This document shows positions 15,573-39,267 of a stretch of 64,000 nucleotides of DNA, piece by piece. Within the stretch, counting starts at the first letter, position 1; every line of letters begins with the position of its first letter. The DNA is taken from positions 19,809 through 83,808 of the forward strand of contig PRDJ01000036.1 of the NCBI GenBank assembly GCA_003345555.1. Reading direction: 5' to 3'. This DNA comes from Candidatus Thorarchaeota archaeon (GTDB taxonomy: Archaea; Asgardarchaeota; Thorarchaeia; Thorarchaeales; Thorarchaeaceae). The notes below the pieces were generated by a model. That model worked only from the letters and a program-made list of their open reading frames with translations. It was not told the origin of the DNA and searched no databases. The position numbers were made by a program, and so were the translations under genes.

Positions 15573-15720
15573 TGGGCAATACTCTCCGATAGGTTTCTGT
15601 CACACGGCTGGGTGTAATATCGGTTGCGCCAGCCGCGTTCGGCAATGGACGACATGTACTACTGTTGATGGTCACTGCCGAAGTTGTTCCAATCCGTCAC
15701 AACTGACTAGGTCAGGACAG

Positions 15721-16515
15721 ATGGAGGTCGCTACCCGGTTTTTCCTTCAAGGGTGGCTTCCGTCTGTCGCTCGCCATCCAAAGGACTTTAGGCAGCGATT
15801 GCCCTTCTTCGTTCCGAGGAATCGCGGATTGAGAGTTACCCCTGACAAGATGAATGACCTTGATGGCAAGACATGTTTCATATGCGGCAAGTATCTCCTC
15901 AACAACACGGAAGATGACTTGGCCTATCTGGAAGTGCACACAGGATCTTCTGCAAAAGCCAAACCAGACAAGTACTTCCTGTTTACGTGCTCCAGCTGCG
16001 GAAAGACTGCTCACAAGCGCTGCTGGTACGACATAGGAGAGAAGCGATTCAAGGACGGACTATTCAGCAAGACACAATGGCGACTTGAATGTCCAAGTTG
16101 CCATCAGGTTCTCTCTCCTGCAAGACCCGGTCGAATAGACTGGAAACTGGGGTACCAGGTTCCGGGACATGGTGACGCAGAACTCATCGAATTGCAGATT
16201 GCGGACGTCCTTTCTTGGAAAGCGTCTCGAGTCACCGGAGTAATTGGGAAAGCCATTGATGGCCTCTTCAGATCAATCGGACTCGGCGCTCTGACCAATG
16301 CGCAGAGAAATGCGATTTCTCAAGCGGCCGACCGAATAGGCAAGTCATTTGGGTTTGTCACATCTGCTGTCTCACTTGACGCCACACCCAAACAGAGGAG
16401 ACAACTGAGGGAGCTCAAGTGCCAAAACTGTGGGGCACCCCTTCCGCTTCCAGGACTCGCGGAATCGGCGGTGGTATGCCCACATTGCGGCACAGCACAT
16501 TTACTCCCCACTTAA
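15721..16515 (+). CDS. Zinc-finger/zinc-ribbon protein. Start ambiguous, with an alternative ATG at 15850.
   Basis: 'KTCFICGKY...FTCSSCGKTAHKRC...CPSCHQ' and a C-terminal 'CQNCGAPLP...CPHCGTAH' ribbon. The 5' extension listed in the ORF track overlaps the divergent gene and was rejected. Confidence 0.4.
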   Translation: MEVATRFFLQGWLPSVARHPKDFRQRLPFFVPRNRGLRVTPDKMNDLDGKTCFICGKYLLNNTEDDLAYLEVHTGSSAKAKPDKYFLFTCSSCGKTAHKRCWYDIGEKRFKDGLFSKTQWRLECPSCHQVLSPARPGRIDWKLGYQVPGHGDAELIELQIADVLSWKASRVTGVIGKAIDGLFRSIGLGALTNAQRNAISQAADRIGKSFGFVTSAVSLDATPKQRRQLRELKCQNCGAPLPLPGLAESAVVCPHCGTAHLLPT

Positions 16516-24887: not shown

Positions 24888-26201
24888 GTGCCGGATCATA
24901 TGCCAAGCATTCCACCGCCCGCATCCAACTCAAGGGAGGGTTTTGCATTGTCTTCGGGCAAATCATTCCTTGGCCTTAGCAGAAGACTCTGGCGCTTGGC
25001 GATCGTTACCGGTATCGCTCAATTTGCTATCAGTCTGTGGAGTTGGCAGTTTGCCATTTTTCTTAGGAATTCGCTGCTCTTGGAACCTTGGCAGATGGGG
25101 CTCATATACTCTCTTGGAACTGTCGCGGCCCTAATTGGGTATCCGGCATCAGGGTTCATCGCAGATGTGATTGGCAGAAGGTTCACAATGGCTTTCTCAT
25201 TGGTACCGATGTTCGTCGGTCTGACACTGCTTTCCCAGATACCCACATGGCCGCTCATTGCTTTCTCATACGCCTTGACTCTTTTTGGATGGAGCTTCAT
25301 TCTGATCATTTCCAGAGCTATGCCCGCTGACGAAATAGCTGCAGCAGGTCAGTCCGATGCTCCGCGCAAGTTCATGATGGTCGTGATGCCAGCATACTTT
25401 GTTGATGGAATCTGCCCAATCATAGCGGCAACGCTGCTAAAGCAAGGGTACAATGCACAGTTTCTTTTCTTCCTTGGTTCAGTGGCGGCGATTATCGCTC
25501 TCGGGGCTACGCTGCTCGCCGTGCGGGAGACTCTCAGTTCGCAGAATCAAAGCAAAGCAAGGGCCAAAGTCCTCGCTTCTCCGAGAAGCCTTGGAGCTCA
25601 ATTCTGGAAATTCGCAGTCGGGATGCTAGCCTACTATGCAGTTTGGGGATTGGCGATATCATACTTGGGACCTCTCTGTGTTGATGAGTGGGGAGTAGAT
25701 GAGGTCACCTTCGGGTACACTTGGAGTGTCTGCTCGCTGTCGACAGCTGTAGCATCATATACCATCAGCGGCCTGACCGCGCGCAGTACGAGGCTCTGCC
25801 TTGTGCTCGCGCTCATCGGGAATTCGCTTATCGTGGGAGCCTTCAGCATCGGTTCAGGGATTATGATGATGGTATTGCTGAACGCACTCTGGGCGGTGCC
25901 GGTCGTCATGTGGATTGGTGCAGAAAGGACGCTCGTTGTCAGGGGCGTACGTCCAGAAATGAAAGGAAGAGCACTTGGTACATGGCAGCTAATGATGAGT
26001 TCGACTACCGTATTCGCGGCTCCCGCCGGAGCAATGATTTGGACGATCACAGGAACTATTCGATCTCTTTGGACAATCGCATCTGTTCTGGGATTTGTCT
26101 CAATCTTGTTTACAGCGATATCGTTGAGGTGGATGGGCGCCGGGGTAAAGGAAAGTAACGGTAATTCCGACGCTCCAACCGATGGCACGAGCGGCGAGTG
26201 A
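24888..26201 (+). CDS. MFS transporter
   Basis: 'GYPASGFIADVIGRRFTMAF' MFS signature and about 12 TM helices. Confidence 0.7.
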   Translation: MPDHMPSIPPPASNSREGFALSSGKSFLGLSRRLWRLAIVTGIAQFAISLWSWQFAIFLRNSLLLEPWQMGLIYSLGTVAALIGYPASGFIADVIGRRFTMAFSLVPMFVGLTLLSQIPTWPLIAFSYALTLFGWSFILIISRAMPADEIAAAGQSDAPRKFMMVVMPAYFVDGICPIIAATLLKQGYNAQFLFFLGSVAAIIALGATLLAVRETLSSQNQSKARAKVLASPRSLGAQFWKFAVGMLAYYAVWGLAISYLGPLCVDEWGVDEVTFGYTWSVCSLSTAVASYTISGLTARSTRLCLVLALIGNSLIVGAFSIGSGIMMMVLLNALWAVPVVMWIGAERTLVVRGVRPEMKGRALGTWQLMMSSTTVFAAPAGAMIWTITGTIRSLWTIASVLGFVSILFTAISLRWMGAGVKESNGNSDAPTDGTSGE

Positions 26202-28177
26202 GTTACTTATTAAGTGGAAGACCTACACTGAGAGTATGCCATAGGTGGCGGCGAGAAGTAGTGACAGAAAAGGGGTCCCCCATTAGCCGCAGGATAAGAC
26301 ACACAGGTGACCTGCTTCTTGGGGGAGCTCAGAAACAGGTAAGCGACTACAAGCAAAGGTTTGATTCTCTCCAGGGCTCTTACGATGCGTTTCTTTCACA
26401 CATGATTGAGTCCTACCCTGCAGATGCGGTCAGTGTCGCATTTGTTGACGAGTTCTTTGGCAAAAGAGAGCTTACGTTTGCAGGTGTAGACGGTACCGTC
26501 TGCAAGTACCCCGTCTTCGATCTCATCGTGTTCTTCGCTGGAGCCTATTCAGCTCACGGCACTGCTCATGTCAATCCTTCGGGAGCCATGAACATTGAAT
26601 GCGATGACTCTTGTCTGGAGACCGGACTCGGGGTGTCCAGTGTTCTGCCCGTGTACATTAACGATGTATTGAGTATTGACCGAACACTACTCGTTACAGA
26701 TGAAGATGGGTCAGTGGATGATTCTATTACGCTAAGTGATTCCTGGGTAATAGACAATTCTGCCTTCGCGGACTACATGATGAGCCTTGCAGAATTCTAT
26801 CTGGGCTACAAGCTCGTCGCGTCAGAGAAGCCCGTCGATATACTATTCCTGGACAGGATATGCTCGTCAGAGCTGTCATCGTTCTACTTCGAGACATCGG
26901 ATTCCAGAAACGATCTTGAAACACAATGCGGTCTCATTGGTGCGAAGGTTGACGGCAGACCATACACGCCCACGGACTGGGTCTACGCACGCCAAGTATT
27001 CGGCAATGCCTCGCTAGGAACACCCCCTGCGAGAGGGGAGTACTTGTTACCCAGAGTGGTCACCGAACTGCTGTCGGAGAAGGGATCAGGTCTCACACGA
27101 GACCAACTCACTGACCGCTTGGGGCTCACAACTGAATCGTCTAAGGCTCGTCTGGACCATGCCTTAGAGACCGGCATCGGAGGAAAGAGGTCGGCCCAGG
27201 GAATCCTAGTTAGAGAACATGACCATTTCGTCTTGAAACCGGGTGTGAGAGACCTAGGGAAACGCACTGAGCGTCTCGTGAATGACGTATGTGAAAGAAT
27301 GTTTAGTGAGGATTCATCAGTTACGTTTGAAGACCGTTTCAAGATCGGCAGCAAGTGGTTGACTACAACAGACCTCGCATTTCTAGGGCTGTGTTGTCTT
27401 CATCTGATTTCCGAGAAGTGCTGGAAGAACAGGTCCCTCCTGATAGGAGTAGCCAAGGACTCCTCGGCAAGAGACTTGAAGCGGCAACTCCTTCCCGTCC
27501 TGAACTATACGGGGCATTTCAAGGGCAACTTCGCCAACAGTGAGAACATCCCCGACACTGATAGGATGATTCTGCAGTGGGTCTCTCTTCAAGAACGCGA
27601 GAAGCTGAAGGTCCCTTGGGCGACATGCGAATATGATACCGCCTTCAAGACCACAGTCCCGCACTTTGGCGGAGCAAAGGGGTTGGTCTCCGGAGCCCGA
27701 CGCAATCAGATATCTCTCAACAAGACCTTTGCCAAAGCGTATTTCCAGCTATCGGAGGCAAAGTCTGATCCGAAGCTTCGAAGCAACGTGCTTCTCTACG
27801 ACAGGCTCGTCTACCCGGACTTTGATACGAACGAAGATCAGGTTCTCACTCTACTGCACGACTATATGGACAAGCCAGACGAACCTGAGCCCGTTGATGT
27901 TGTTCTCTATCTGGGGAAGGAGAACGCAGTTCAGTCATTCATCATCGCCTTATTCACAAAGATGACCGGCACGAGCATCCCCGAGCTCTTTGGTCACCTG
28001 AGACCGCTGTACATAGCCGACAAGATTGCGAAGTTTCATTACACACAGTTCTCGTCTATGGTAGAAAGCACAGGGTCTTGGTTAACGAACAGGCCTCAGC
28101 TGAGGGAATTCCTGTTCTATCTCAGCACCTTCAGAGAAAGGAGGTCGGAAGTTGAGCAAACAAGAAAGTATGGATGA
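26198..28177 (+). CDS. nurA: NurA-like nuclease, large form (659 aa) with an extra C-terminal region of about 250 aa
   Basis: 'TFAGVDGTVCKY' resembles NurA motif I (xxDGS/T catalytic Asp). GTG start overlaps the MFS stop (GTGA). An alternative ATG lies at about 26408. The 3' end overlaps herA by 26 nt. Confidence 0.5.
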   Translation: MSYLLSGRPTLRVCHRWRREVVTEKGSPISRRIRHTGDLLLGGAQKQVSDYKQRFDSLQGSYDAFLSHMIESYPADAVSVAFVDEFFGKRELTFAGVDGTVCKYPVFDLIVFFAGAYSAHGTAHVNPSGAMNIECDDSCLETGLGVSSVLPVYINDVLSIDRTLLVTDEDGSVDDSITLSDSWVIDNSAFADYMMSLAEFYLGYKLVASEKPVDILFLDRICSSELSSFYFETSDSRNDLETQCGLIGAKVDGRPYTPTDWVYARQVFGNASLGTPPARGEYLLPRVVTELLSEKGSGLTRDQLTDRLGLTTESSKARLDHALETGIGGKRSAQGILVREHDHFVLKPGVRDLGKRTERLVNDVCERMFSEDSSVTFEDRFKIGSKWLTTTDLAFLGLCCLHLISEKCWKNRSLLIGVAKDSSARDLKRQLLPVLNYTGHFKGNFANSENIPDTDRMILQWVSLQEREKLKVPWATCEYDTAFKTTVPHFGGAKGLVSGARRNQISLNKTFAKAYFQLSEAKSDPKLRSNVLLYDRLVYPDFDTNEDQVLTLLHDYMDKPDEPEPVDVVLYLGKENAVQSFIIALFTKMTGTSIPELFGHLRPLYIADKIAKFHYTQFSSMVESTGSWLTNRPQLREFLFYLSTFRERRSEVEQTRKYG

Positions 28178-30017
28178 ACTCTTCACGGACTTCGATGGAA
28201 CCTTCGACGGAGTTCTGGCCCGAGTAATTCCTGTCGCGGCCAACTACACTTCGGAATGGGCGGGCTCAGCGGCACGGTATGACTGTAGGGTGAAGGTTCG
28301 TTACAACAAGGAACTCATGGCGCAGCTCGAGGAAGGAATGATGCTCGCTGTCAAGAACTTCCGAGGCCAGTCAAAACTGTCGCTCCAGAAGGATCTCGAG
28401 AGATATACAGTCATGGTCGTCGCAAAGATATGGCCGCTTCATTATGGATTGGGGGGTGTTAGCGACAGTCACTACTTCCCACTTCAGATGGAAGTGATTG
28501 AACAGGCTCTTCCAGACTGGGATACTGATGACCAAGCCACAATGATGATTCACCTCGATGCAATACCCATCAACTACGATATGATCGTCGATTCATCAGA
28601 CAAGATTGAATTCAAGAAGGGATTCTCATACCCACTGGTTGGGGGCAAGGTTCACGTAATCAATATGGAAACCGTAGACCTGATCTACAACGGAAAGGTG
28701 AAGGATGCACTTGGGTTCAGGAAGAAAGCTAGCACAGCCGATCCCAGGAAGGACCCGAGGATTGGTCTCCTAAGGATGTTCATGGAATCGGGAAAGGAGA
28801 TACCCATCTATGTAGACCTGACGAAACTGGTTCGATACCACTTTGGCGTTTTCTCGTTCACTGGAGGAGGAAAGAGCAACCTATTGGCGAACCTTTTCCG
28901 CAGGATACTCTATCATCAGAAGGACACGAAGCTGGTCATATTCGATGTCAGCTGCGAGTATCCATTTCTCCTCTGTGATGTTTTCGCGGACCCCAGTATT
29001 CCTTCCAGAATCATATTGGAAGACGAAGCAACGACGGCCGATGATTTCGCCCGAACAATAGTGAAGCCTCGCGATTTCGAGGAAGACCCGAAAGCGAATG
29101 ATGCACTGAAGGCGATATTCGATAAAGGACGCGTCTCGTTCTACAATCTCCCTCTTGCCCAAGTGCCAACTTACGCAGACATCATGGATGAGATACAGGA
29201 CCTCAGGTCAGATAGTGCTGGTAAGCCAACCTACGTCCAAGCTATCGACCAAGTTGCAGCCATGGTACAAGGCTGGATGGAGTCGTGGAGCAAGAAGGAT
29301 GGAGACGAAGTTGACGAGAAGTTCATAGACGCGTATCAAGAAGCGGCAGAGGCTGCAATCACGGAGTTCTCAGTTAGTGAGAAGGCAAACCTTCATGCGT
29401 GGTCAAAAACCAGAGGTAAGCTGAAAGATGCCCTTCGCCGCGCCCGTGATGCACCCAAGAAAGGTATGACCGCTAAAGAAATCACTAACCTCATTCGTGG
29501 GAAAGAGAGAGTGGTCTGTCTGTCTATTGCCGACCCAGATACACTCAGAGACTTGGTCATCCGATTGACTGGGTCAGCTCTGAGGTATAGAAAGCGCAGC
29601 TTCGAGATAAAGCCCCAGATTCTATTCGTCTTTGACGAAGCCCAGGAGTTCATCCCTTCAAACGCAACAGGGCTGACAATCAATTGCAGTCGAGCGGTTG
29701 AGACATTGCTACGGCAGGGGCGCAAGTATGGTCTGGGTGGAGCCATCGCGACGCAAAGGATAGCCTATGTAAACACAAACATAATGCAGCAGCTTCATAC
29801 ATTCTTTGTCGGAACGCTGCCGAGACCTTATGACCGCACGGTCGTTAGCAGCTCGTTCCAGATAGACTTGAGTATCTTGGATAAAACTCTCGAGTTCCCA
29901 CCGGGCTCATGGCTGCTCTCGAGCTACATAGCCACTGGATTGGATAGTGTTCCAATCTTCGTAAGAGCGGACAACTCTGAAGATGTACTGAGGGAGCACA
30001 TTCAATCGCTCAAATGA
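28152..30017 (+). CDS. herA: HerA-like (DUF87/FtsK-HerA superfamily) ATPase, 621 aa
   Basis: Walker A 'HFGVFSFTGGGKSNLLANL'. Walker B 'ILFVFDEAQEFIP'. 'IATQRIAYV' (TQR motif). N-terminal beta-barrel-like region. Confidence 0.75.
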   Translation: MSKQESMDELFTDFDGTFDGVLARVIPVAANYTSEWAGSAARYDCRVKVRYNKELMAQLEEGMMLAVKNFRGQSKLSLQKDLERYTVMVVAKIWPLHYGLGGVSDSHYFPLQMEVIEQALPDWDTDDQATMMIHLDAIPINYDMIVDSSDKIEFKKGFSYPLVGGKVHVINMETVDLIYNGKVKDALGFRKKASTADPRKDPRIGLLRMFMESGKEIPIYVDLTKLVRYHFGVFSFTGGGKSNLLANLFRRILYHQKDTKLVIFDVSCEYPFLLCDVFADPSIPSRIILEDEATTADDFARTIVKPRDFEEDPKANDALKAIFDKGRVSFYNLPLAQVPTYADIMDEIQDLRSDSAGKPTYVQAIDQVAAMVQGWMESWSKKDGDEVDEKFIDAYQEAAEAAITEFSVSEKANLHAWSKTRGKLKDALRRARDAPKKGMTAKEITNLIRGKERVVCLSIADPDTLRDLVIRLTGSALRYRKRSFEIKPQILFVFDEAQEFIPSNATGLTINCSRAVETLLRQGRKYGLGGAIATQRIAYVNTNIMQQLHTFFVGTLPRPYDRTVVSSSFQIDLSILDKTLEFPPGSWLLSSYIATGLDSVPIFVRADNSEDVLREHIQSLK

Positions 30018-30058: not shown

Positions 30059-30757
30059 CTAGGCCGGTTCAAGCCGGATTGTCTGATTGCAGTTCTGGCA
30101 AACCACAGTACGGTCAGGTCTGATTTGATCTGAACGATAGAGGTACGCGGCCTTGCAGTGTGGGCACACGGTCCGTGTGACCCCTAGTATCTCTTTGAGC
30201 TCTCTTCGTTTCTCCTGAACCGTGGGTGGCAGCCGAAGAGGATGAGACTTGATGCGATTCCGACCGGCGCAGCACAATGCGCCAAAAGGAATCGAAATGA
30301 CACCTAGCACTGCAATTGCGAACTGCATTGTACCGAAACCGATTAGCAGGAGCACCAACCCAACGACGGTAAGGACGAAGCCACACGGAAAAGTGAACAT
30401 GAGATCGGAGAGCAGCGCGGACTTCCATTGTTCCATACATGCAGGGCAGAAGTATCGACTGGTCATTCTCGATTGGCCCAAGCTGTCGTCTTCCCACCGG
30501 ACGACGTAAAGACACTGCTCGCAGAAGGCCTTACCACATCGATTGCACAACCCTATTGATGGTACCCCGGGATGGTTAGGACATTGCTGATAGAGACCAC
30601 CCAGTTCTGATGGAACAAGAATCGTGCTACCACAGTATCTGCACCTAGCCTGAATCGTACCGGGCTCCAGTTCATAGCCGTGAGGAGCACCGCGGAAAGG
30701 GCAGACGAAAGCTTCTCTCTCTACACTGACCCCGCTAATGAGATGAGTAATAAACAT
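30059..30757 (-). CDS. Membrane protein with an N-terminal double zinc-ribbon/B-box-like module, 2 TM helices and a C-terminal zinc ribbon (paralog P1)
   Basis: 'EREAFVCPFRGAP...CRYCG...CPNHPGVPSIGLCNRCGKAFCEQCLY...CPAC', then TM, then 'VCPHCKAAYLYRSDQIRPDRTVVCQNCNQ'. The true start may be the GTG 12 codons in (VEREAF). Confidence 0.5.
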   Translation of the reverse strand: MFITHLISGVSVEREAFVCPFRGAPHGYELEPGTIQARCRYCGSTILVPSELGGLYQQCPNHPGVPSIGLCNRCGKAFCEQCLYVVRWEDDSLGQSRMTSRYFCPACMEQWKSALLSDLMFTFPCGFVLTVVGLVLLLIGFGTMQFAIAVLGVISIPFGALCCAGRNRIKSHPLRLPPTVQEKRRELKEILGVTRTVCPHCKAAYLYRSDQIRPDRTVVCQNCNQTIRLEPA

Positions 30758-30833
30758 CTTATCAGATTTGTGGACTTCGACAGGCTAATCCACCGAGATT
30801 GACCCAGCCCCTTTCTGTTTTCCGAGACACTCT

Positions 30834-31598
30834 CTAGCTTGACTTGATGCCTTCTCTGGCGGGCAACCCAAGATACTCACGGATGTTATAGTAATGCTCG
30901 CGCTCATGCTCCAAGTATCTTCTCATTACCTTGTACGCTGTCCACTGCTCGCTTGGATTGTTTGTATACTCTGCTCTCGTAAACATCGTGGCTCCCTTCT
31001 TCGGGACAACGTCTCTTAGACACATGACACAAGCTCTTCTTACAACCTCAAGCCGCTGAAAGACCGGCAGCTTGTCAACTTCAGACTCCGACGTGCCCTC
31101 GTACTTCTCATACTTCTGATCTGTTTCTGCTCCGAGTCTCGACAAATAGAACTCTTCGGCGTTGCACACGTGTTGCAGAATACCAGTGATGTCCCGCTTC
31201 TTTCCTTCGGGAATATTGCTCATTTGCTGAGGCGTCAGATCACTTACGAGGCCAAGTAAGTCCTGCCTGTTGTGCCCCATGAGACGTATGAAGTGGTCCA
31301 ACATCCGAGTTGTTACGGTCCTACGATCAAACTCGAACGTGGCGACTTCTCCACCTGATTCGCCTAGATTCACAACATCATGAATCTCCTCTGCCACGTT
31401 CATACTGAAAGCTTCTCGGATTCGAGACTGTTCGCCGTGCTTCCTGAGCCACGAATCATGGTACAAAAGCTCTTCGCGGAGAACCTCTAGCAGGGACTGC
31501 CTGTCCTGAGACCTAGCGTGGGTACCCGGAAGCTCAATGAACCGACCGTACCAGAGACCTGTATTGCCGCTTTCCAGCGCCAAAGAGAACACAGTCAT
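30834..31598 (-). CDS. DinB/YfiT-like (DinB_2) metal-dependent protein with an N-terminal HicB-like domain
   Basis: N-terminus 'MTVFSLALESGNTGLWYGRFIELPG' (HicB/UPF0150-like). C-terminus 'RYLEHEREHYYNIREYL' His-rich DinB motif. Confidence 0.4.
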   Translation of the reverse strand: MTVFSLALESGNTGLWYGRFIELPGTHARSQDRQSLLEVLREELLYHDSWLRKHGEQSRIREAFSMNVAEEIHDVVNLGESGGEVATFEFDRRTVTTRMLDHFIRLMGHNRQDLLGLVSDLTPQQMSNIPEGKKRDITGILQHVCNAEEFYLSRLGAETDQKYEKYEGTSESEVDKLPVFQRLEVVRRACVMCLRDVVPKKGATMFTRAEYTNNPSEQWTAYKVMRRYLEHEREHYYNIREYLGLPAREGIKSS

Positions 31599-31761
31599 TG
31601 CCTTTCCTGCCTAGTGAACAAGCGGAGTGGGAAAAGGCTTACGACGAAATTGGTCCCAATCATGTTACCGCACGCGAGTCTCTCAAATGATACTCTCTCT
31701 CATGCGTATCTTCACACATCCACAGACATCCTGGTACTGGTAGGATAGGTGTGACGCAGTG

Positions 31762-32274
31762 TCAGGGCAAGCCTTTCAGCCTGTCCCCGAGAGACGGCGC
31801 GTCTATCCGCGCCAACCTTAACGCAATCATCCCGAGGAAGACTACTACTGAAAGCAGAAGAGCGACATAGATCTCTGGATACTGTCCTCCACTCCGTACT
31901 GCAAAGTACAGAAAGACGGCAACGGGGACGGCAAACATCACAATGCCGCAGTCTTGTCTACTCCGGACCCGATGTGTTGTTCGCCTCAAGCAAGTAGGAC
32001 AGAGATACTTGCTTTGTCCAACATATCTGAATTCGTGGATACATTTGATGGAATAAGATTGACCACAATCGCGGCAAACCACCAATGCCGGAACATCATG
32101 ATGTACTGGGGACTGTCTGCTAGTAGTCTGAAAGGGAACGGTGACAAGGTTCCCACAGTGTTCGCATTTCGTCCTGACCGCATCTGCTGTCGGCGCATTA
32201 TTCAAAGGGCTCCCACAAAACGGACAGATGACTATATCCTTCTCCACGCTGTGCCCCATTACTTCATTGCGCAT
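31762..32274 (-). CDS. Zinc-ribbon/B-box-like membrane protein (paralog P2)
   Basis: 'ICPFCGSPL...CEHCG...CRDCGQSY...CPTC' followed by 2 TM helices. Confidence 0.5.
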   Translation of the reverse strand: MRNEVMGHSVEKDIVICPFCGSPLNNAPTADAVRTKCEHCGNLVTVPFQTTSRQSPVHHDVPALVVCRDCGQSYSIKCIHEFRYVGQSKYLCPTCLRRTTHRVRSRQDCGIVMFAVPVAVFLYFAVRSGGQYPEIYVALLLSVVVFLGMIALRLARIDAPSLGDRLKGLP

Positions 32275-32328
32275 TGGGCACTTATCAGTCTTCTGAGGAT
32301 AGGCTGCGGAAGCTGTTCAACACCTGAT

Positions 32329-33099
32329 TCATTCGAGGATTCGTCTGAAGAGGATGGTTGCTATTGTAGCGAATATCGCTGTGGCGAGAAGACCAGCGCC
32401 CAAGTCAAGAGGGATATTCGAAACATATCCCGGAAGTAACAGAGCTCTCATCGCATCTGTGATATAGCTCAGAGGATTGTACGCCGATATTATCTGGAGC
32501 CAACCGGGCATCTGGTTAATTGGATAGATTGCACTGCTGGTGAAGAAAAGAGGCATGGTTATCGCTTGGCCTATTCCCATCATCTTCTCTCGACTCTTGA
32601 ATATTGGAGCCAAGCACATGGACAAACACGAGAAGCACATCCCGGCAATCACTATGACCAAGGCAACTCCGATGAGATCTAGCGGATTCAGACTTAGCTG
32701 AACATTGATGATTAGGGCCAGAACGAAGACAACAATGGCCTGGAATATGCCTCTGACCCCGGCCGATATAGCCTTGCCCAAGACTATCGCTGACCGAGGG
32801 GCTGGCGTAGAAAGGAGCTTGTTTAGGAGCCCAAGGTCCCTCTCCCAGACGAGCATTATCCCATAAAAGACGGCAACGAACATCACGGACTGCGACAGCA
32901 CTCCCGGAGTAAGGAATTGGAGGTACGTGAACGACCCGACGTCGATAGCTCTTATGCTGGTTAGTGCGGTCCCGAAAACTAGCAGCCAGAGTGCTGGCTG
33001 AACTCCGCGTATGAATATTTCTGAAGAATCGTGCCTGAGCTTTCGGAGCTCGAATTCAGCCAGTGTGGACACAGTGCGCAAGAACTTTGATCCGATCAT
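32329..33099 (-). CDS. ABC-2 family transporter permease
   Basis: 6-TM ABC-2 layout. Start chosen at the internal Met, which forms an ATGA overlap with the ATPase stop. The longer track ORF 32329-33147 would overlap by 52 nt. Confidence 0.6.
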   Translation of the reverse strand: MIGSKFLRTVSTLAEFELRKLRHDSSEIFIRGVQPALWLLVFGTALTSIRAIDVGSFTYLQFLTPGVLSQSVMFVAVFYGIMLVWERDLGLLNKLLSTPAPRSAIVLGKAISAGVRGIFQAIVVFVLALIINVQLSLNPLDLIGVALVIVIAGMCFSCLSMCLAPIFKSREKMMGIGQAITMPLFFTSSAIYPINQMPGWLQIISAYNPLSYITDAMRALLLPGYVSNIPLDLGAGLLATAIFATIATILFRRILE

Positions 33100-34082
33100 C
33101 CTTTTCGCTTCCTCATCGCTAATCTCGTGACTCGCGCATCCCGCCACGTGCCACCATCCTGAATCCTAGCCCCTGCGTACTTCAGGAACACGTCATCCAG
33201 TGTAGACTTCTTGAGCGAGACAGATTCAACGTGTATCTTATGAGCCTCAAGAGATTCCAATACTGCAGGTATAGCCTTCTCGCCCTGAGCTACTACGAGC
33301 TCGTACGTACCCTCATCGGGTTTTGACACCAACAGCTGCCCATGCTCTCGCAGGATTAATGAACAATCTCCGTCGTGAGCAGTGATTGAAATCATGTCTC
33401 CTCCCATATCGTCCTTCAGTTGTGTTGGCGACCCATCTGCCACAATCTTCCCTTTGTTCATTATCGCAATCTCATCGCAGAGCACCTCGGCTTCATGCAT
33501 ATCGTGAGTGGTCACCAACATTGTAGTCCCGAATTCGTCCCGTAGGTGCATTATCTGGTTCCAGACCGCGGTCTTCGCGGATGGATCAAGGCCAATGCTC
33601 GGCTCGTCAAGAAATAGCATCCTGGGTCTGTTCATGAGTGCCTGGGCTATCTCAAGCCGCCGCATCATTCCTCCCGAATAGGTCTTTGCCAAATCGTGCT
33701 GACGGTCGGCCAGCTCCATGTATTCAAGAGCGTCCTGAATTCTTTGACCCCGCTGTTCTTTCGGCGTGTAATATAGCTTCGAATACATCAGCAGGTTCTC
33801 ATAGCCCGAGAGGTCCGTGTCTATCGAGACCTCCTGAGGCACATAACCCGAGATTTGTCGAACAGATGCCGCGGACTTCACACAGTCGATTCCAAAGACC
33901 TTGATAGTTCCAGAGGTGGGTCTGATAAGGGTGAGCGCGATTCGTATGGTTGTCGTCTTCCCGGCACCATTTGGACCAAGGAGACCGAATATCTGGCCCT
34001 CATCAACATCGAACGATATCGAATCGACCGCCTTGAAGTCTGAGTACATCTTTGTCAGATCCATTGCCTCGACCGCTTTCAT
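33096..34082 (-). CDS. ABC transporter ATP-binding protein (DrrA-like)
   Basis: 'GLLGPNGAGKTTTIRIA', 'LSGGMMRRLEIAQAL', 'LFLDEPSIGLD'. Confidence 0.8.
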   Translation of the reverse strand: MKAVEAMDLTKMYSDFKAVDSISFDVDEGQIFGLLGPNGAGKTTTIRIALTLIRPTSGTIKVFGIDCVKSAASVRQISGYVPQEVSIDTDLSGYENLLMYSKLYYTPKEQRGQRIQDALEYMELADRQHDLAKTYSGGMMRRLEIAQALMNRPRMLFLDEPSIGLDPSAKTAVWNQIMHLRDEFGTTMLVTTHDMHEAEVLCDEIAIMNKGKIVADGSPTQLKDDMGGDMISITAHDGDCSLILREHGQLLVSKPDEGTYELVVAQGEKAIPAVLESLEAHKIHVESVSLKKSTLDDVFLKYAGARIQDGGTWRDARVTRLAMRKRKG

Positions 34083-34248
34083 GTCGGACTTTCCTCCGCT
34101 TTTCGAGGGTCAACTCAGTTATCATCTTGAAATGCAGTCTCTCTTCATCAGACCGTTTCGGTCAAAAGCAAGGCGGCTCATCTGATAAGCTCTACCCTTT
34201 GGCCGCAGTCCTGTATGTTGTGGGTCTCGTACCAGTAAGCTCTCCGAA

Positions 34249-34758
34249 TCAAGTGTCGAGACTCCCACGATGCTCCTTTGCCTTGCTCGCAACTGTAGGC
34301 ATGTTGGTGATTCTGCGCCTTTGGATGATTCCTCCTGCCAAACAATACATGCCAAGGAATAGGGACATCAGCGTTAGTGCTGCAGAATCTCCACCACCTC
34401 GGACACCCGATAACCCGACCACTAGGAACAAGACAGAGAAGCAAATCAAGAAGTAGATGCCCGGTGTAGCCTCGATGGTTGCCAGCCCTGCGCATCTTGG
34501 ACATAGGTATTCCTTAGCCCCTCCTAGTCTTTGGAACACATAGAGACACCGACCACAGAATGCTTGACCGCATCTGGTGCAGAAACCTGTCGTCAGGGCG
34601 TCTGAGTGATTCGGACATCGTTGAGTCAGTCCGGTTAGGCGGCGCGGGACTACAATCATCCCGCCGCAGTACGAGCACTTTACCTGCGTTGCGCTTGATG
34701 GCAATTCACCCTTCTGAGGTGCGCCACAGAACGGACAGACGAATGCCTCTCTCTCCAT
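34249..34758 (-). CDS. Zinc-ribbon/B-box-like membrane protein (paralog P3)
   Basis: 'MEREAFVCPFCGAP...CSYCGG...CPNHSDALTTGFCTRCGQAFCGRCLY...CPRC' plus 2 TM helices. The N-terminus is nearly identical to P1. Confidence 0.5.
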   Translation of the reverse strand: MEREAFVCPFCGAPQKGELPSSATQVKCSYCGGMIVVPRRLTGLTQRCPNHSDALTTGFCTRCGQAFCGRCLYVFQRLGGAKEYLCPRCAGLATIEATPGIYFLICFSVLFLVVGLSGVRGGGDSAALTLMSLFLGMYCLAGGIIQRRRITNMPTVASKAKEHRGSLDT

Positions 34759-34886
34759 TTGAATGCCCGGGCTTTATGCTCTACTCAAGGGGATATCAGG
34801 TTTGTGAACATGAGAAGAGATAGTCCGCTCAAACAGGATAGGTTGCTCGATCTTCACCCTGTGCATCGTGCCATGATGTTTCATCA

Positions 34887-35057
34887 TCAGACTTGGTCGG
34901 GCTCGCCTAGCATGCTGATCCTTCGTCCGCAGTTCTGACAGGAGAAGATGCGGTCAGGTCCAACCTTGTCAGGACCATAGCGATAGCTTGCACCACAGTA
35001 AAGGCACTTGACATAAACAGAATCTGCGCTTGGGAGGAACCCGTTTGTCTCCTTCAT
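34887..35057 (-). CDS. Small zinc-ribbon ORF (56 aa), homologous to the C-terminal ribbon of P1
   Basis: Manual translation MKETNGFLPSADSVYVKCLYCGASYRYGPDKVGPDRIFSCQNCGRRISMLGEPDQV. ATGA overlap with the stop of 35054-35524. Below the ORF-track length cutoff. Confidence 0.4.
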   Translation of the reverse strand: MKETNGFLPSADSVYVKCLYCGASYRYGPDKVGPDRIFSCQNCGRRISMLGEPDQV

Positions 35058-35524
35058 AATCTGCCCGAGAAGGGGATGGTTAATTGGTCCGAAGACTGCC
35101 CAGAGCCCCTCAGTAGTAGGAACAGGCCGTACACTGTGACATCGGATGGGTAATAGGCCCGTCTAGGAGGAATGAAGAAGACAGCAATCATCACGGTGAC
35201 TACACCTATGATTATTCTAGTCATGCGAGCTCGGTTCTTTGTCCTTCCCGAGCACGCTTCGCAGACATAGTTGTCCCTGAGTCTTTGATATATGTAGAGA
35301 CAGTTTTCACAGAATCTCCGACCAGACACGTCGCATGCTCCCACTGAAAGCACATCTGGATGGTTTGAACACAACTCTCTGGTTTCCGTGATATCACTGG
35401 AGAGTAGAATTGGATACCCGCAGGAACGGCATCGTGTTTGAAATGCTCCTTCGGGAGGTGTATCAACTTGAAGCGTACGATAAGAACGACAGATGATAGC
35501 CCCCTTCCTCACAGCTGTTCCCAC
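35054..35524 (-). CDS. Zinc-ribbon/B-box-like membrane protein (paralog P4), with a partly degenerate cysteine pattern
   Basis: 'CRSCG...CSNHPDVLSVGACDVSGRRFCENCLY...CEAC' plus TM helices. The first CPxCG is lost (IICRSY). Confidence 0.45.
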   Translation of the reverse strand: MGTAVRKGAIICRSYRTLQVDTPPEGAFQTRCRSCGYPILLSSDITETRELCSNHPDVLSVGACDVSGRRFCENCLYIYQRLRDNYVCEACSGRTKNRARMTRIIIGVVTVMIAVFFIPPRRAYYPSDVTVYGLFLLLRGSGQSSDQLTIPFSGRL

Positions 35525-35849: not shown

Positions 35850-36113
35850 GTGATCCCCTTGGGAAAGAAGACACTGAGTGATGTCCCATGTCCTGTATGC
35901 AAGGGCCCTGTCACTGGCGTCATAGTTGAAGAGGATTCAATTCTGAATGCCAAGAGAGTGCCGGTCATCGTCCCGGCCAAGTGCAGAAAGGGACACGCAG
36001 TGATTCTGTTCGTAGACAGGGCATTCGTCATTCGTGATGTCGAAGCAGCTGGAGATGCCGAGCAGAAGAAGAGTGCCCTTGACAAGGCTCAGTCTTGGAT
36101 GGACTCATTCTGA
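35850..36113 (+). CDS. Small zinc-ribbon-like protein. First gene of the Roadblock-GTPase operon.
   Basis: 'CPVCKG...CRKGH' (C-x2-C...C-x3-H). Ends 11 nt before the Roadblock start. Confidence 0.35.
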   Translation: MIPLGKKTLSDVPCPVCKGPVTGVIVEEDSILNAKRVPVIVPAKCRKGHAVILFVDRAFVIRDVEAAGDAEQKKSALDKAQSWMDSF

Positions 36114-36120
36114 GGGTGAA

Positions 36121-36665
36121 CGAGATGATCAAGATGGTCTACGTCATTAACGACGCTGGCGAGACGCTCGTTTCAATTCCGCTAGGCGACTTTCATGCCG
36201 ATGAAGCACTGTTTGGCGGATTCATGACTGCTATTGACATGTTCAGTCACAAGATGGCTGGAGACTCAATAAAGGAACTCATTCTCGGAAACAATCGAGT
36301 CGTCGTCGCTCGTGAAGGCGCCCATCTTCTTGTCACCGTGCATGATAAGGGGGATACCGACAGCCAAACCATCAATGCGAGAGCATGCGAGGCTTTCCGG
36401 AAACACTACGGCGGCGTTGTGACCGACGAAATGACAGATGCTATTCGCGAAGCTGTTCTCGGTACCATATCTATTCGGGGCAAGGCAGAAGATTGGGCTT
36501 CAAAGATGCTCTAGAAGGAAACGGAAATGGCGATAGAGGTATACGTTGCAGCGGAATTTCTTATGTTTGTGAGCTTGATAGCAGCTAGCTTTGCGATTGC
36601 GGGATACACTCGTCGTCGAATCAGGGAGCTGCCTGAAGAGGACAAGAAACTGGGCAAACCACTCT
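36121..36665. repeat. Segmental duplication, copy A (Roadblock gene plus 5' end of the membrane-protein gene)
   Basis: Nucleotide-level similarity to 38878-39420, starting at 'gatcaagatggtctacgt'. Confidence 0.6.
36125..36514 (+). CDS. Roadblock/LC7 (MglB-like) domain protein
   Basis: About 129 aa: 'MIKMVYVINDAGETLVSIPLGDFHADEALFGGFMTAIDMFS...LILGNNRVVVAREGAHLLVTVHDKG'. Start placed at the ATG where homology with the duplicate copy begins. Confidence 0.65.
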   Translation: MIKMVYVINDAGETLVSIPLGDFHADEALFGGFMTAIDMFSHKMAGDSIKELILGNNRVVVAREGAHLLVTVHDKGDTDSQTINARACEAFRKHYGGVVTDEMTDAIREAVLGTISIRGKAEDWASKML

Positions 36666-38005
36666 ACGCATACGCAGCTGGCACTTTCGTGATGGGCATA
36701 ACATCCTTTGCCAACTACCTAGCAGGCACGCAAGTTGTGATAGGGCCGTGGGCATGGCGCTTTTGGCCATCATACGCCTATGTCGTCTTAGCCATACTTG
36801 CCCCGGCGTTCATTTCGATAGCTGCGTTGATCGTCCTTGGGCGAGAGCATTTCATGATCCCGACCCTTTTTGCATTGGTGCTTGTTAGCTACGTTTGGAT
36901 ATTGCCAATGATACCAAACCCAATCGATGCTCGTGATGCGACTGCAGATGTGTCCTCCGTCATGTACATACCCGCAGTCCTGCTATTCGGGTACATATTG
37001 GCCAAAACGAGAAAAGCCACCAGTCTCGGGCTTTTCTACGTGGTCACATTCTATCCTCTCTATCGGTTGACTGTTATCGGACTGTCTGCCGGGCCGGTGG
37101 ATCTCAGCATCGTCTTTCTTGCCCTGCGGCTGCTGGCGCCAGTAATTGCCGCCGTCGCATTCCAAGTACGTGATATAGGAATATCATTCGAACTGGCGGG
37201 GTATGGGATGGCATACGCGCTTATTGCATTCTGGCTTTCGTATCTCATGATATCCCCTGTTACCGACCCTGTGCTGATTGCATCTCTCACTCTGATTGCT
37301 CTCGGATCGACAATCGGATTTGGTACGGGTGCATACACGTATGCCCGCTGGAAGAAGAACAGGCTCGGAGCAACATTCGTTCTATTCCTGTCGTTTACTT
37401 TCACAACATGGGCGTTCATACTGGTAGCCCTTCAGGGCCTAGGTCTTGCAACAGCAATCTACTACACCTATGCTTACATTTTCCTGACCTTCATTGCCCT
37501 CATGTGTTTCAATATGGCCGCGTATCTTGCTCTGGAATGGAGGTCGCTTCTCTTGTTGCCCGTCCTGATGATACTGCCGCTATTGTTCTTCTTGTCGATC
37601 CAATACCCTAGTGACCCACGCCTTAATCCGTTCTTCATCCCGGCCATCAGTATAACAGGTGTCGTTGCAGCGATTGTACCTGTTGCGTTGTATCTTTACC
37701 TGTGGCAAAGAATGAGGCAAGCAAAGGCGCCAGCCGCGAGCAGACCCCTGTTGTTGGCCACTGGAATCCTTGGATTGACTCTTGCTTTGGCTGCAGGCCC
37801 CATTACAATGGGTACAGAGGTTCTGAATGTGGCAAATCCAATCAGCGGAGTTCTCACATTCATCGCTTTTCTAGCATGGTGGTTGGCAGTTACTGGTAGG
37901 AACGAACGTTTCATGAAATGGTTGCACTCCACATTCCTGAAACCCAAGCCTGCTCCGTCCACGCCTCCGCCAGCGGGAGCTGCCTCTCAGCCCGGTGGTG
38001 CCTGA
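36527..38005 (+). CDS. Polytopic membrane protein (about 13 TM), unknown function. Lies between the Roadblock and GTPase genes.
   Basis: 492 aa, highly hydrophobic, Pro/Ala-rich C-terminal tail. The stop is 2 nt before the GTPase ATG. Confidence 0.55.
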   Translation: MAIEVYVAAEFLMFVSLIAASFAIAGYTRRRIRELPEEDKKLGKPLYAYAAGTFVMGITSFANYLAGTQVVIGPWAWRFWPSYAYVVLAILAPAFISIAALIVLGREHFMIPTLFALVLVSYVWILPMIPNPIDARDATADVSSVMYIPAVLLFGYILAKTRKATSLGLFYVVTFYPLYRLTVIGLSAGPVDLSIVFLALRLLAPVIAAVAFQVRDIGISFELAGYGMAYALIAFWLSYLMISPVTDPVLIASLTLIALGSTIGFGTGAYTYARWKKNRLGATFVLFLSFTFTTWAFILVALQGLGLATAIYYTYAYIFLTFIALMCFNMAAYLALEWRSLLLLPVLMILPLLFFLSIQYPSDPRLNPFFIPAISITGVVAAIVPVALYLYLWQRMRQAKAPAASRPLLLATGILGLTLALAAGPITMGTEVLNVANPISGVLTFIAFLAWWLAVTGRNERFMKWLHSTFLKPKPAPSTPPPAGAASQPGGA

Positions 38006-38007
38006 AG

Positions 38008-38538
38008 ATGTCTGCCAGAATCCCCGTATTCAAGACTGTTCTGATCGGGGAGGGAGGGGTGGGCAAGACCAGTATCACGCTGCGGTACACGGAGAATCGT
38101 TTCGAAGATAGTATGCGCATGACGGTTGGTGCTAACTTCGCTTCCAAGAAGGTGACTATTGGCAGCACACAGATGACCATCATGCTTTGGGATCTGGGAG
38201 GACAGCCCCGATTTCATGACGTGGTACAGGACTACTTCAAGGGAAGCAAGTTCGGAATCGCAGTCTATGACGTCAATCGACTCTACACTTTGGAGCGGCT
38301 TGAGGAATGGATTCATCGATTGAGAGAAGTTGCGCCGGACTGTGACCTCCTCATTGTCGGTAACAAAATAGACGAGCGAACCAATGACGGTGGAGTAGCC
38401 CTTGCCGAAGGGATTGCGTTCGCATCCAAGTTCGGCGCTGACTGCATTGAGGTTTCAGCTAAGACAGGTCAGGGAGTAAATGAGATTTTCGAGACGGCTG
38501 CAAGGCTTCTCATCAAGAAGTACATACAGAAGGTATAG
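38008..38538 (+). CDS. Rab/Ras-like small GTPase (176 aa)
   Basis: G1 'LIGEGGVGKTS'. Switch I 'RMTVGANF'. G3 'LWDLGGQPRF'. 'VYDVN'. G4 'GNKID'. G5 'SAKTGQGV'. Confidence 0.8.
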   Translation: MSARIPVFKTVLIGEGGVGKTSITLRYTENRFEDSMRMTVGANFASKKVTIGSTQMTIMLWDLGGQPRFHDVVQDYFKGSKFGIAVYDVNRLYTLERLEEWIHRLREVAPDCDLLIVGNKIDERTNDGGVALAEGIAFASKFGADCIEVSAKTGQGVNEIFETAARLLIKKYIQKV

Positions 38539-38886
38539 CATCTTACCAATAGAGCGTAATTCAAGCTAATAGTAAGGCTCCTACCTTGTGTCCCGTCCCT
38601 CACATCATTGACACACAATTTGCTAATATATCGCTCGTTCATGGAAAGCCGAAAGGCCCCACTTCTCCATTGTGGAGTCGCCAGAAGACCAAGAACGATA
38701 TGTGGGTTGAAGGATCGCAGTCGGTATTCATAAGTAGGAAGTCGCTAGATAGTCTTCTCAGGAGAGAGCATCAACAATCACCCTCACTGACTCCGACAGC
38801 TATCTATCCCCACATCAGAAGCAAGGGGATGTCCTCAGCGTTCAATCAGAACCCATCTTGCTCTGAAGGTGATTAGTCTGATCAAG

Positions 38887-39267
38887 ATGGTCTACGTTAT
38901 CAACGAAGCTGGTGAGACATTGTCCGCCATTGCTCTCGGCAACTTCCATGCTGACGACGCGTTGTTCGGGGGTTTCATGTCTGCTATAGATATGTTCTCT
39001 CAGAAGATGGCGGGAGATGTCATAAAGGAGCTCGTCCTTGGTAATGACAGAGTCCTAGTTGCCCGTGAAGGAGTCTATCTTCTAGTCACGATACATGACA
39101 AAGGAGATACTGACAGCCAACTTGTGAGCCGAAAGGTATGCGAAGCGTTCCGTAAGCATTTTGCCGGTCTCGTAACTGAGGAGATGACACAAGCCATCCG
39201 TGAAGCAGCCTTAGGCAGTGAATCTGCAGGCAGAAAAGCGAAGGATTGGGCGTCGAGGATACTTTAG
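38887..39267 (+). CDS. Roadblock/LC7 domain protein, duplicate of 36125-36514
   Basis: 'MVYVINEAGETLSAIALGNFHADDALFGGFMSAIDMFS...' About 80% identical to copy 1. Confidence 0.6.
   Translation: MVYVINEAGETLSAIALGNFHADDALFGGFMSAIDMFSQKMAGDVIKELVLGNDRVLVAREGVYLLVTIHDKGDTDSQLVSRKVCEAFRKHFAGLVTEEMTQAIREAALGSESAGRKAKDWASRIL

Follow-up and report, generated by a model that had tools for sequence, protein, structure and literature searches.

Introduction

The closest described counterparts of the genes analysed here are prokaryotic membrane proteins with B-box zinc fingers, in which the ligand pattern C-x2-H-x7-8-C-x2-C-x4-C-x2-C lies beside transmembrane (TM) helices. According to PMC4506424, which cites Burroughs, Iyer & Aravind 2011, prokaryotic B-box proteins are linked to the folding, stability and proteolysis of membrane proteins. 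Here we analyse four genes of this general type, P1 to P4, on the minus strand of a 64,000-nucleotide stretch of DNA from a Candidatus Thorarchaeota archaeon (contig PRDJ01000036.1, positions 19,809 to 83,808), which we call the window; the four genes are interleaved with an exporter of the ATP-binding cassette (ABC) superfamily. We show that P1 to P4 are paralogs from an undescribed family, an archaeal variant of the RING-like/B-box fingers already known from membrane-linked proteins of prokaryotes, and we consider a role as membrane-tethered adaptors.

The archaeal family shares its first six finger ligands with the prokaryotic membrane B-box proteins, but has a single finger and no repeats, and the finger is preceded by a conserved CPFCGAP...CxYCG zinc ribbon. 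Its last ligand pair is C-x2-C, 14-25 residues further on, instead of H/C within 3-6 residues; the proteins of the window score below the Pfam gathering threshold (GA), and the family lacks a peptidase context. The FYVE and Rab-effector fingers of Hrs, EEA1, rabphilin-3A, RIM2 and melanophilin have the same succession of a first ligand pair, at least eight residues, CxxC, four residues, CxxC, 14-20 residues, CxxC and a helix. Unlike them, the archaeal family lacks the motifs for binding phosphatidylinositol 3-phosphate (PI3P), has C-x2-H as its first pair and has TM segments for anchoring where they bind lipid. Haloarchaeal CdpC, the membrane anchor for FtsZ1 (bioRxiv 10.64898/2026.07.16.738847), provides a precedent: it is a zinc-ribbon protein of archaea that evolves fast and ties a partner in the cytoplasm to the membrane. 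CdpC is not homologous to P1-P4: it has a double zinc ribbon, binds the membrane through an amphipathic helix, lacks a binuclear finger and is reported to be absent from Thermoproteota, the phylum of most members of the P1-P4 family.

Four paralogous zinc-finger genes

All eight open reading frames (ORFs) of the cluster were found on the minus strand, with the coordinates and in the order of a preliminary description made from the sequence: P4, a small zinc-ribbon ORF, P3, the ABC ATPase, the ABC permease, P2, a DinB gene and P1. P1 (30059..30757) has 232 aa as annotated, with two TM helices and a C-terminal MJ0042-type ribbon, and is identical to NCBI protein C4K47_04360. P2 (31762..32274) is divergent and shares no more than 26% identity with any of the other copies. 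P3 (34249..34758; 169 aa; identical to C4K47_04385) is the sole fully intact copy. P4 (35054..35524) ends within its second TM helix, and the small ORF (34887..35057; 56 aa) follows it. Searched against the window by tblastn, the four copies found each other with E values of 1e-13 to 3e-28, P1 aligning with P3 at 3e-28 over 183 residues, with P4 at 1.5e-18 and with P2 at 8.8e-15, and P3 with P2 at 5e-19. Since the alignment covers the whole length of the proteins, hydrophobic TM region included, and the E values are this low, the paralogy is no artefact of common CxxC pairs. P1 to P4 are true paralogs whose similarity goes far beyond chance, as had been proposed along with their ribbon, central eight-ligand finger and two TM helices.

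Each copy runs from a predicted cytoplasmic zinc ribbon through an eight-ligand, putatively two-zinc finger to a two-helix membrane hairpin. In P3 the ribbon ligands are C8, C11, C28 and C31, the finger ligands C48, H51, C60, C63, C68, C71, C86 and C89 (C-x2-H-x8-C-x2-C-x4-C-x2-C-x14-25-C-x2-C), and the TM helices span approximately residues 103-119 and 126-142. Eleven of these twelve ligands are invariant in an alignment of 59 family sequences, and the twelfth, C11, is conserved in more than 90% of them. The full 12-ligand pattern occurs in 93 fetched members, 76 of which have at least two TM segments after it. Given the four-Cys ribbon and the eight ligands with cross-brace spacing, the N-terminal ~95 residues would hold three zinc sites. 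The loop between the TM segments is short (median 8 residues), and lysine plus arginine are about three times denser after the second TM segment than in the loop; together with the Cys-rich domains, this points to a hairpin with both termini inside and no outside domain.

Some members add a cytoplasmic tail, which in Thorarchaeota copies can be an MJ0042-type ribbon. P3 has no such tail, and P1 and P4 do. The P1 ribbon (30074..30175, residues 195-228) scored 31.9 bits with TIGR02098 (cutoff 20.9) and 22 bits with Pfam Zn_ribbon_4. Domain scans detected neither an enzyme domain nor a DNA-binding domain in the family proteins, and a scan of the long members for fused domains gave nothing above threshold. 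The label of a double zinc ribbon, given to the copies at first, is not borne out by its model: Pfam DZR (PF12773) gave 20.7 bits for P2 (GA 27.3) and matched 5 of the 59 members at E<=0.01. Many Bathyarchaeial members (P0010, P0025, P0043, P0061, P0097 and others) end in the motif 'LE..I..YM..G(L/F)(S/T)REEAIR.LAE..G', which is sometimes duplicated; Pfam UPF0181/YoaH matched six of ten such 'LSREEAI' tails below threshold, and UBA matched once.

A zinc finger followed by TM helices is also the general layout of anti-sigma factors, and the preliminary description had compared the copies with anti-sigma-type or signal-transducing membrane regulators, which would free the zinc finger on a signal. 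Besides this layout, a transcription regulator of this kind has in its favour that the N-terminal ribbon weakly resembles TFIIB-type ribbons, below threshold, in 8 of the 59 members. However, zf-HC2 did not match P1 or P3 at E<=1 in their full match lists and was not among the best 25 of 34 matches for P2, the outside loop of some eight residues leaves no sensor domain, and the scans found no domain that would bind DNA. To our knowledge, archaea have no sigma factors, as is textbook knowledge. We therefore regard a membrane-tethered regulator as scarcely credible.

Identity of the central finger

The middle element had been likened to a B-box, and this turned out to be half right. The Pfam family of TRIM/MID1-type B-boxes 1 and 2, zf-B_box (PF00643), ranked first for both P1 and P3, with 20.0 and 21.5 bits respectively (GA 24.1), and the Pfam scan found no zf-B_box match in P2 or P4. 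It was also the top family, at E<=0.01, in 43 of the 59 members, with a best E value of 2.5e-5, which is about at GA (P0052, 24.0 bits). The matches cover positions 4-30 of the 42 in the model only. Indeed, the pattern of the first six B-box ligands, C-x2-H-x7-9-C-x2-[CD]-x4-C-x2-C, is present, with C48, H51, C60, C63, C68 and C71 invariant in all 59 sequences. The last pair departs from the B-box, in which H/C follow ~3-6 and 2-8 residues after the sixth ligand: in the archaeal family it is C86-x2-C89, located 14-25 residues past C71 and just before a helix.

In AlphaFold2 models, the mean predicted local distance difference test (pLDDT) score was 74-76 and the predicted template-modelling score 0.46-0.48, with a pLDDT of 80-90 over the binuclear finger. 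The best Foldseek matches of the predicted fold were the Rim2 and RIM zinc fingers; solved FYVE domains (PF01363) resembled it as well, and solved B-box structures were not the closest fold. The predicted fold is thus closest to FYVE and Rab-effector fingers. When the family profile was compared with the sequences of PDB entries, the ribbon part matched the aIF2-beta ribbon (1.7e-5) and the finger part matched the RNF4 RING (2e-4) and MID1 B-box1 (2ffw, 7e-3), as well as ZFYVE19 and the TRIM25 RING. Pfam FYVE gave weak matches in 7 of the 59 members (13-22 bits; GA 27.8), and the PI3P-binding motifs WxxD, R(R/K)HHCR and RVC are absent from the family alignment, which has, for example, 'TTGFCTRCGQAFC' and 'AVGLCNDCGKSYC' instead.

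The family profile also reached bacterial proteins in which two or three such fingers are followed by TM helices, and proteins that combine FHA and the finger, with E values down to ~1e-12. Three of seven bacterial multi-B-box or FHA-linked examples (P0087, P0100, P0105, P0130, P0112, P0116 and P0126) pass the zf-B_box GA, at 31.7-40.7 bits. Hence, the central finger is a binuclear RING-like treble clef whose first three quarters are B-box-like and whose last ligand pair and helix are FYVE-like. The B-box comparison was a fair lead: the top-ranking Pfam family and the bacterial B-box relatives bear it out. It does not amount to membership, since the scores stay below GA and the last pair and the fold differ.

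One further idea is that the finger is an archaeal FYVE/Rab-effector-like module that a hairpin fixes to the membrane, and that the co-regulated Thorarchaeota copies are membrane receptors or effectors for the Ras/Arf-like GTPase-roadblock modules that lie divergently beside them in five syntenic loci, those long enough to show that side (see below). If true, the array and the modules would mirror, in a prokaryote, the way in which GTPases recruit effectors at the membranes of eukaryotes. We consider this idea a long shot.

Distribution and genomic context of the family

Word-indexed protein searches returned 4-15 matches, and an exhaustive HMMER search was needed to reveal the family: a four-sequence profile retrieved 329 cluster representatives at E<=1e-3, 87 of them at E<=1e-10. 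Searching GTDB species genomes with a 15-sequence sub-alignment of the 59-sequence alignment gave 29 loci, 26 in Bathyarchaeia/Bathyarchaeota and one each in Thorarchaeota, Promethearchaeota and, as a weak match, Ignavibacteria. More than 155 further relatives came from JGI metagenomes, and none were found on viral contigs. The sequences define a sizeable protein family of archaea for which neither Pfam nor NCBIfam offers a model and whose members are labelled in their sources only as 'hypothetical protein' or 'predicted Zn finger-like uncharacterized protein'. With them, the radiation of RING-like treble-clef fingers known from prokaryotes reaches Bathyarchaeia and Asgard archaea.

Outside Thorarchaeota the gene is mostly single-copy. 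We examined 62 such loci of at least 5 kb, identifying the neighbours by reading their sequences and not by model scans. No neighbour family occurred in more than 10 of these loci, and no conserved partner emerged; the commonest neighbours were housekeeping genes, namely those for a class I aminoacyl-tRNA synthetase, aRF1, an aminotransferase and generic ABC ATPases. P0035 and P0055, which are relatives of the Thorarchaeota-type copies, also lie in unrelated contexts. The most frequent immediate neighbour is a class I aminoacyl-tRNA synthetase of ~1000 aa, found near the family gene in ~10 Bathyarchaeia loci (L006, L010, L011, L013 and six more) and located 45-115 bp upstream on the same strand in six of them; this adjacency is probably lineage synteny.

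In view of the reach of the profile into bacterial B-box TM proteins and of the published proposal cited in PMC4506424, P1-P4 might be partners of membrane-associated peptidases or of membrane-protein quality control. No membrane peptidase recurs near the gene, however. An M29-like aminopeptidase, read from sequence and not from a model scan, was present at variable distance in 7 of the 62 loci, and a weak M23-like ORF in one Thorarchaeota locus. A peptidase-linked role thus seems rather improbable for the archaeal family. Burroughs, Iyer and Aravind (2011, Mol Biosyst 7:2261) are said to have proposed such a peptidase-partner or quality-control role for prokaryotic B-box, AN1 and LIM domains alike.

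Linkage to a DrrAB-type exporter

The ABC genes in the cluster encode a DrrA-type ATPase with an ABC-2 permease, coupled by an ATGA overlap, as previously described. The ATPase (33096..34082) scored 325.9 bits with TIGR01188 (drrA; cutoff 312.45) and matched Pfam ABC_tran and DrrA1-3_C. The permease ORF was listed as 32329-33147, but its real start is the ATG at 33099, which overlaps the ATPase stop at 33096-33099 and gives a DrrB-like protein of 256 aa (32329..33099), the length of the L001 ortholog. It scored 121.8 bits with Pfam ABC2_membrane (PF01061; threshold 26.9) and stayed below the drrB cutoff (123.9 against 223). The ATPase model, the permease family and the coupling are thus those of DrrAB-type exporters; the zinc-finger genes at their flanks were seen, among the loci of the finger family, only in the Thorarchaeota clade.

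This linkage recurs in six loci, the window and L001, L023, L112, L114 and L120, the ATPases of the other five being 90-94% identical to that of the window. The six syntenic loci contain 4, 2, 5, 6, 3 and at least 5 finger genes, and in all of them the ATPase-permease pair has same-strand copies before and after it, at gaps of 50-170 bp. L001, L023, L112 and L114 agree in both flanks, with a convergent HerA-like ATPase at one end and a GTPase module opposite; the sequence of L120 does not extend to the GTPase side. Between the loci, the ABC genes are 88-96% identical, and positional counterparts of the finger genes 30-52% identical, except for P3 with 69-87%. A gene of 425 aa (309 aa in L120) without a Pfam family, absent from the window, lies between the finger genes and the ABC ATPase in L112 (9577-10854), L114 (9279-10556) and L120 (3529-4458); none of the extra genes of the syntenic loci (425 aa, 309 aa and 146 aa) matched a Pfam family.

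The position of the copies could mean that they are accessory or regulatory subunits of the exporter, with hairpins that dock on the permease and fingers that gate transport or pick substrates. The close same-strand spacing on both sides of the pair in six loci fits this, as does the exporter forming a core that stays the same while the rest of the locus varies. The common gene order carries little weight, though, given that the six loci are close relatives. An ABC-2 permease was found in none of the 62 other loci and generic ABC ATPases near the gene in 10 of them; by tblastn among 111 loci, the permease of the window was found in L001 and L023 alone, both Thorarchaeota relatives. Moreover, the upstream motif described below is private to the paralogs and missing from the ABC genes, and copies decay while the exporter is under strong constraint. 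A role as exporter subunits is therefore possible but unlikely. The exporter linkage is local to one Thorarchaeota clade and no trait of the family. Within this clade the ABC-2 context recurs; homologs outside it have no conserved context, an outcome that the preliminary description had named as refuting. With the linkage limited to six close loci and the motif private to the paralogs, the 'stress or export module' suggested earlier is weak and unsupported.

A sequence motif upstream of the finger genes

The 8-mer CTGATAAG occurs six times in the 64 kb (2.17 expected), five of them inside the 5.5-kb cluster; the motif was first noticed by eye, so that this enrichment is a post hoc figure. On the minus strand, it is found upstream of P1 (30758..30765, abutting the annotated ATG), P2 (32281..32288) and P4 (35546..35553, with its first base 29 nt ahead of the GTG). 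In P3 the variant CTGATATC (34792..34799, in the context cacaaaCCTGATATCccc) takes its place; it starts 41 nt before the ATG and is also present upstream of the paralogs L112 c and L023 d. The array's promoter-like element reads yCAnAAAyCTGATAAG; in six Thorarchaeota loci, a relaxed block, yCAnAAAyCTGA(T/A)A(A/T)(G/C), precedes 21 of 25 finger genes, beginning 8 to 41 nt (29-41 in most cases) ahead of the approximate start, usually followed after ~25 nt by TTGRGGG and then by the start codon. In the same loci it precedes no ABC ATPase or DinB gene, and across 866 kb of other loci its background frequency amounts to 0.024 per kb.

Recurrence of the motif before paralogs that share 25-35% protein identity is hard to explain without selection. 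Its position would fit an archaeal TATA or proximal promoter element or an operator, and the finger genes probably have transcripts of their own and are regulated together. The lack of the motif before the ABC and DinB genes argues against an operon shared with the paralogs. As a family-specific element, the motif could lead to a dedicated regulator. A sigma-70 promoter and terminator scan gave results at chance level, and the sigma-70 model is not applicable to archaea. One inverted extra copy of CTGATAAG is located on the plus strand between P3 and the ATPase (34182-34189), and one copy lies inside the ATPase coding sequence (33922-33929), where L001 and L114 also have one minus-strand copy; the copy within the ATPase gene is probably a coding coincidence.

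The motif also bears on the start codons. It starts 41 nt before the GTG at 32247 in P2, and this motif-to-start spacing suggests that the true start of P2 is likely this GTG. The same distance in P1 leads to GTA (30724-30722), the codon that aligns with the family start, which is ATG or GTG elsewhere. The 'V' of VEREAFVCPF in P1 is thus no start codon, which corrects the preliminary description. Because of this GTA, P1 may have lost its normal start and with it normal translation; its sole in-frame ATG (30757) touches the putative promoter block.

Decay and selection in the array

The copies differ in how many of the 12 family ligands they keep. P3 has all of them, P1 has lost C11 (C11->R, giving CPFRG; 11/12), P2 has lost C48 and C68 in the binuclear finger (both to serine; 10/12), and P4 has lost C11 and C63 (C11->Y, C63->S; 10/12). 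In addition, P4 and the small zinc-ribbon ORF belong to a single gene that is now split between two frames. In a tblastn search with the intact ortholog P0004 (207 aa), residues 2-134 aligned in frame 1 and residues 133-207 in frame 3, placing a frameshift at approximately 35105..35111. The small ORF is 60-62% identical to the C-termini of intact P4 orthologs and resembles the C-terminus of P1 (tblastn, 8.8e-7). It is thus the displaced C-terminal MJ0042-type ribbon of P4 and not a separate gene, and P1 is not the sole copy with such a ribbon, contrary to what had been reported. The intact orthologs P0004 (in L001) and L023_a retain all ligands, and the split form, P0002, appears in both Logan and ENA and on two contigs. 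Hence, P4, which had already been suspected of degenerating, is a frameshifted pseudogene, and P1 and P2 are degenerating too through ligand loss. Intact, ligand-losing and frameshifted copies stand side by side in this compact case of gene birth and death.

P3 shares 87% identity with its ortholog in L112 and 69% with the one in L023, at ratios of nonsynonymous to synonymous substitution rates (dN/dS) of 0.16-0.19, which show purifying selection on P3; the ABC genes have values of 0.04-0.11, so that P3 is 2-4 times less constrained, with dS near saturation in several of the pairs.

Such turnover could also be expected of a fast-diversifying conflict or immunity family, whose members would be sentinels, decoys or immunity factors against viruses or toxins. 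The copy number of 2-6, the presence of pseudogenes and the divergence of the paralogs (30-50% identity, against 88-96% for the ABC genes) are consistent with this, and the array lies beside a convergent defence-type HerA ATPase (PADLOC 'HerA, Type III coevolved', 138 bits). PADLOC matched neither P1 nor P3, however, which were the two copies scanned, and the viral contigs held no relatives. The selection on P3 is purifying and not diversifying, the gene is single-copy among housekeeping genes in Bathyarchaeia, and the window is ordinary chromosome, with genes for a glycogen debranching enzyme, an MFS transporter and GTP cyclohydrolase II. Overall, we deem a conflict function very unlikely.

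A possible role as membrane-tethered adaptors

The architecture of the family, together with the failure to find an enzyme domain, a DNA-binding domain or a conserved partner, leads us to favour P1-P4 as membrane-tethered interaction adaptors, a reading that holds about half of our confidence. A zinc-finger binding surface would be held at the inner face of the membrane, where it would recruit or retain a cytoplasmic or membrane partner; such an adaptor would not sense external signals. In one Thorarchaeota lineage, what is a single gene in Bathyarchaeia has become a tandem array of 2-6 copies, evolving by birth and death around a conserved DrrAB-type exporter.

Several points weigh against this reading. 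Neither an informative fused domain nor a peptidase linkage nor a recurrent partner came to light in the 62 loci outside Thorarchaeota, and in every locus of the Thorarchaeota clade the exporter stands amid the copies, which makes a functional tie to it possible. Zinc binding and membrane topology are predicted from ligand spacing and residue composition, the structural models are only moderate overall, and the promoter role of the motif is argued from its position and conservation. The frameshift and the lost ligands were read from a metagenome-assembled genome, in which a single indel could be an assembly error.

Neighbouring genes

The DinB_2 protein (30834..31598, minus strand, 254 aa) is encoded between P1 and P2. 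Its C-terminal half is a DinB_2 four-helix-bundle domain (PF12867, residues 110-236, 42.7 bits against a GA of 24.8, E 9.6e-11), which confirms the assignment made earlier. The N-terminal domain had been called HicB-like, and its sole such similarity is an 'ELPG' motif spotted by eye in the sequence; residues 1-105 of three orthologs gave no Pfam match at E<=10, the N-terminal ~100 residues have no sequence relative in the PDB, and PADLOC did not match the protein. The gene is present in three of the syntenic loci (window, L001 and L112) and absent from L023, L114 and L120.

Divergent to the array, a four-gene module on the plus strand (35850-39267) encodes an 87-aa CxxC protein, a 139-aa roadblock-like protein without a Pfam match, a polytopic membrane protein of ~490 aa and a Ras/Arf-like small GTPase (Pfam Ras, 1.8e-39). 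Two full copies of this module are present in L001, and one full and a second partial copy in each of L023, L112 and L114.

Elsewhere in the window, ORF 15403-16515 (plus strand) encodes a Cys-rich protein with several CxxC pairs and a C-terminal zinc ribbon (LKCQNCGAPL...VVCPHCGTAHLLP) but no Pfam family. We considered it as a fifth copy because of a weak tblastn match to P1 (9.6e-5) and rejected it as a different Cys-rich protein.

The HerA-like DUF87 ATPase gene (28152-30017, plus strand) is convergent to the cluster, an arrangement that all five syntenic loci preserve. A 659-aa ORF (26198-28177, plus strand), for which Pfam, NCBIfam and PADLOC gave no match, overlaps it with its end, and the two may form a defence or repair pair.

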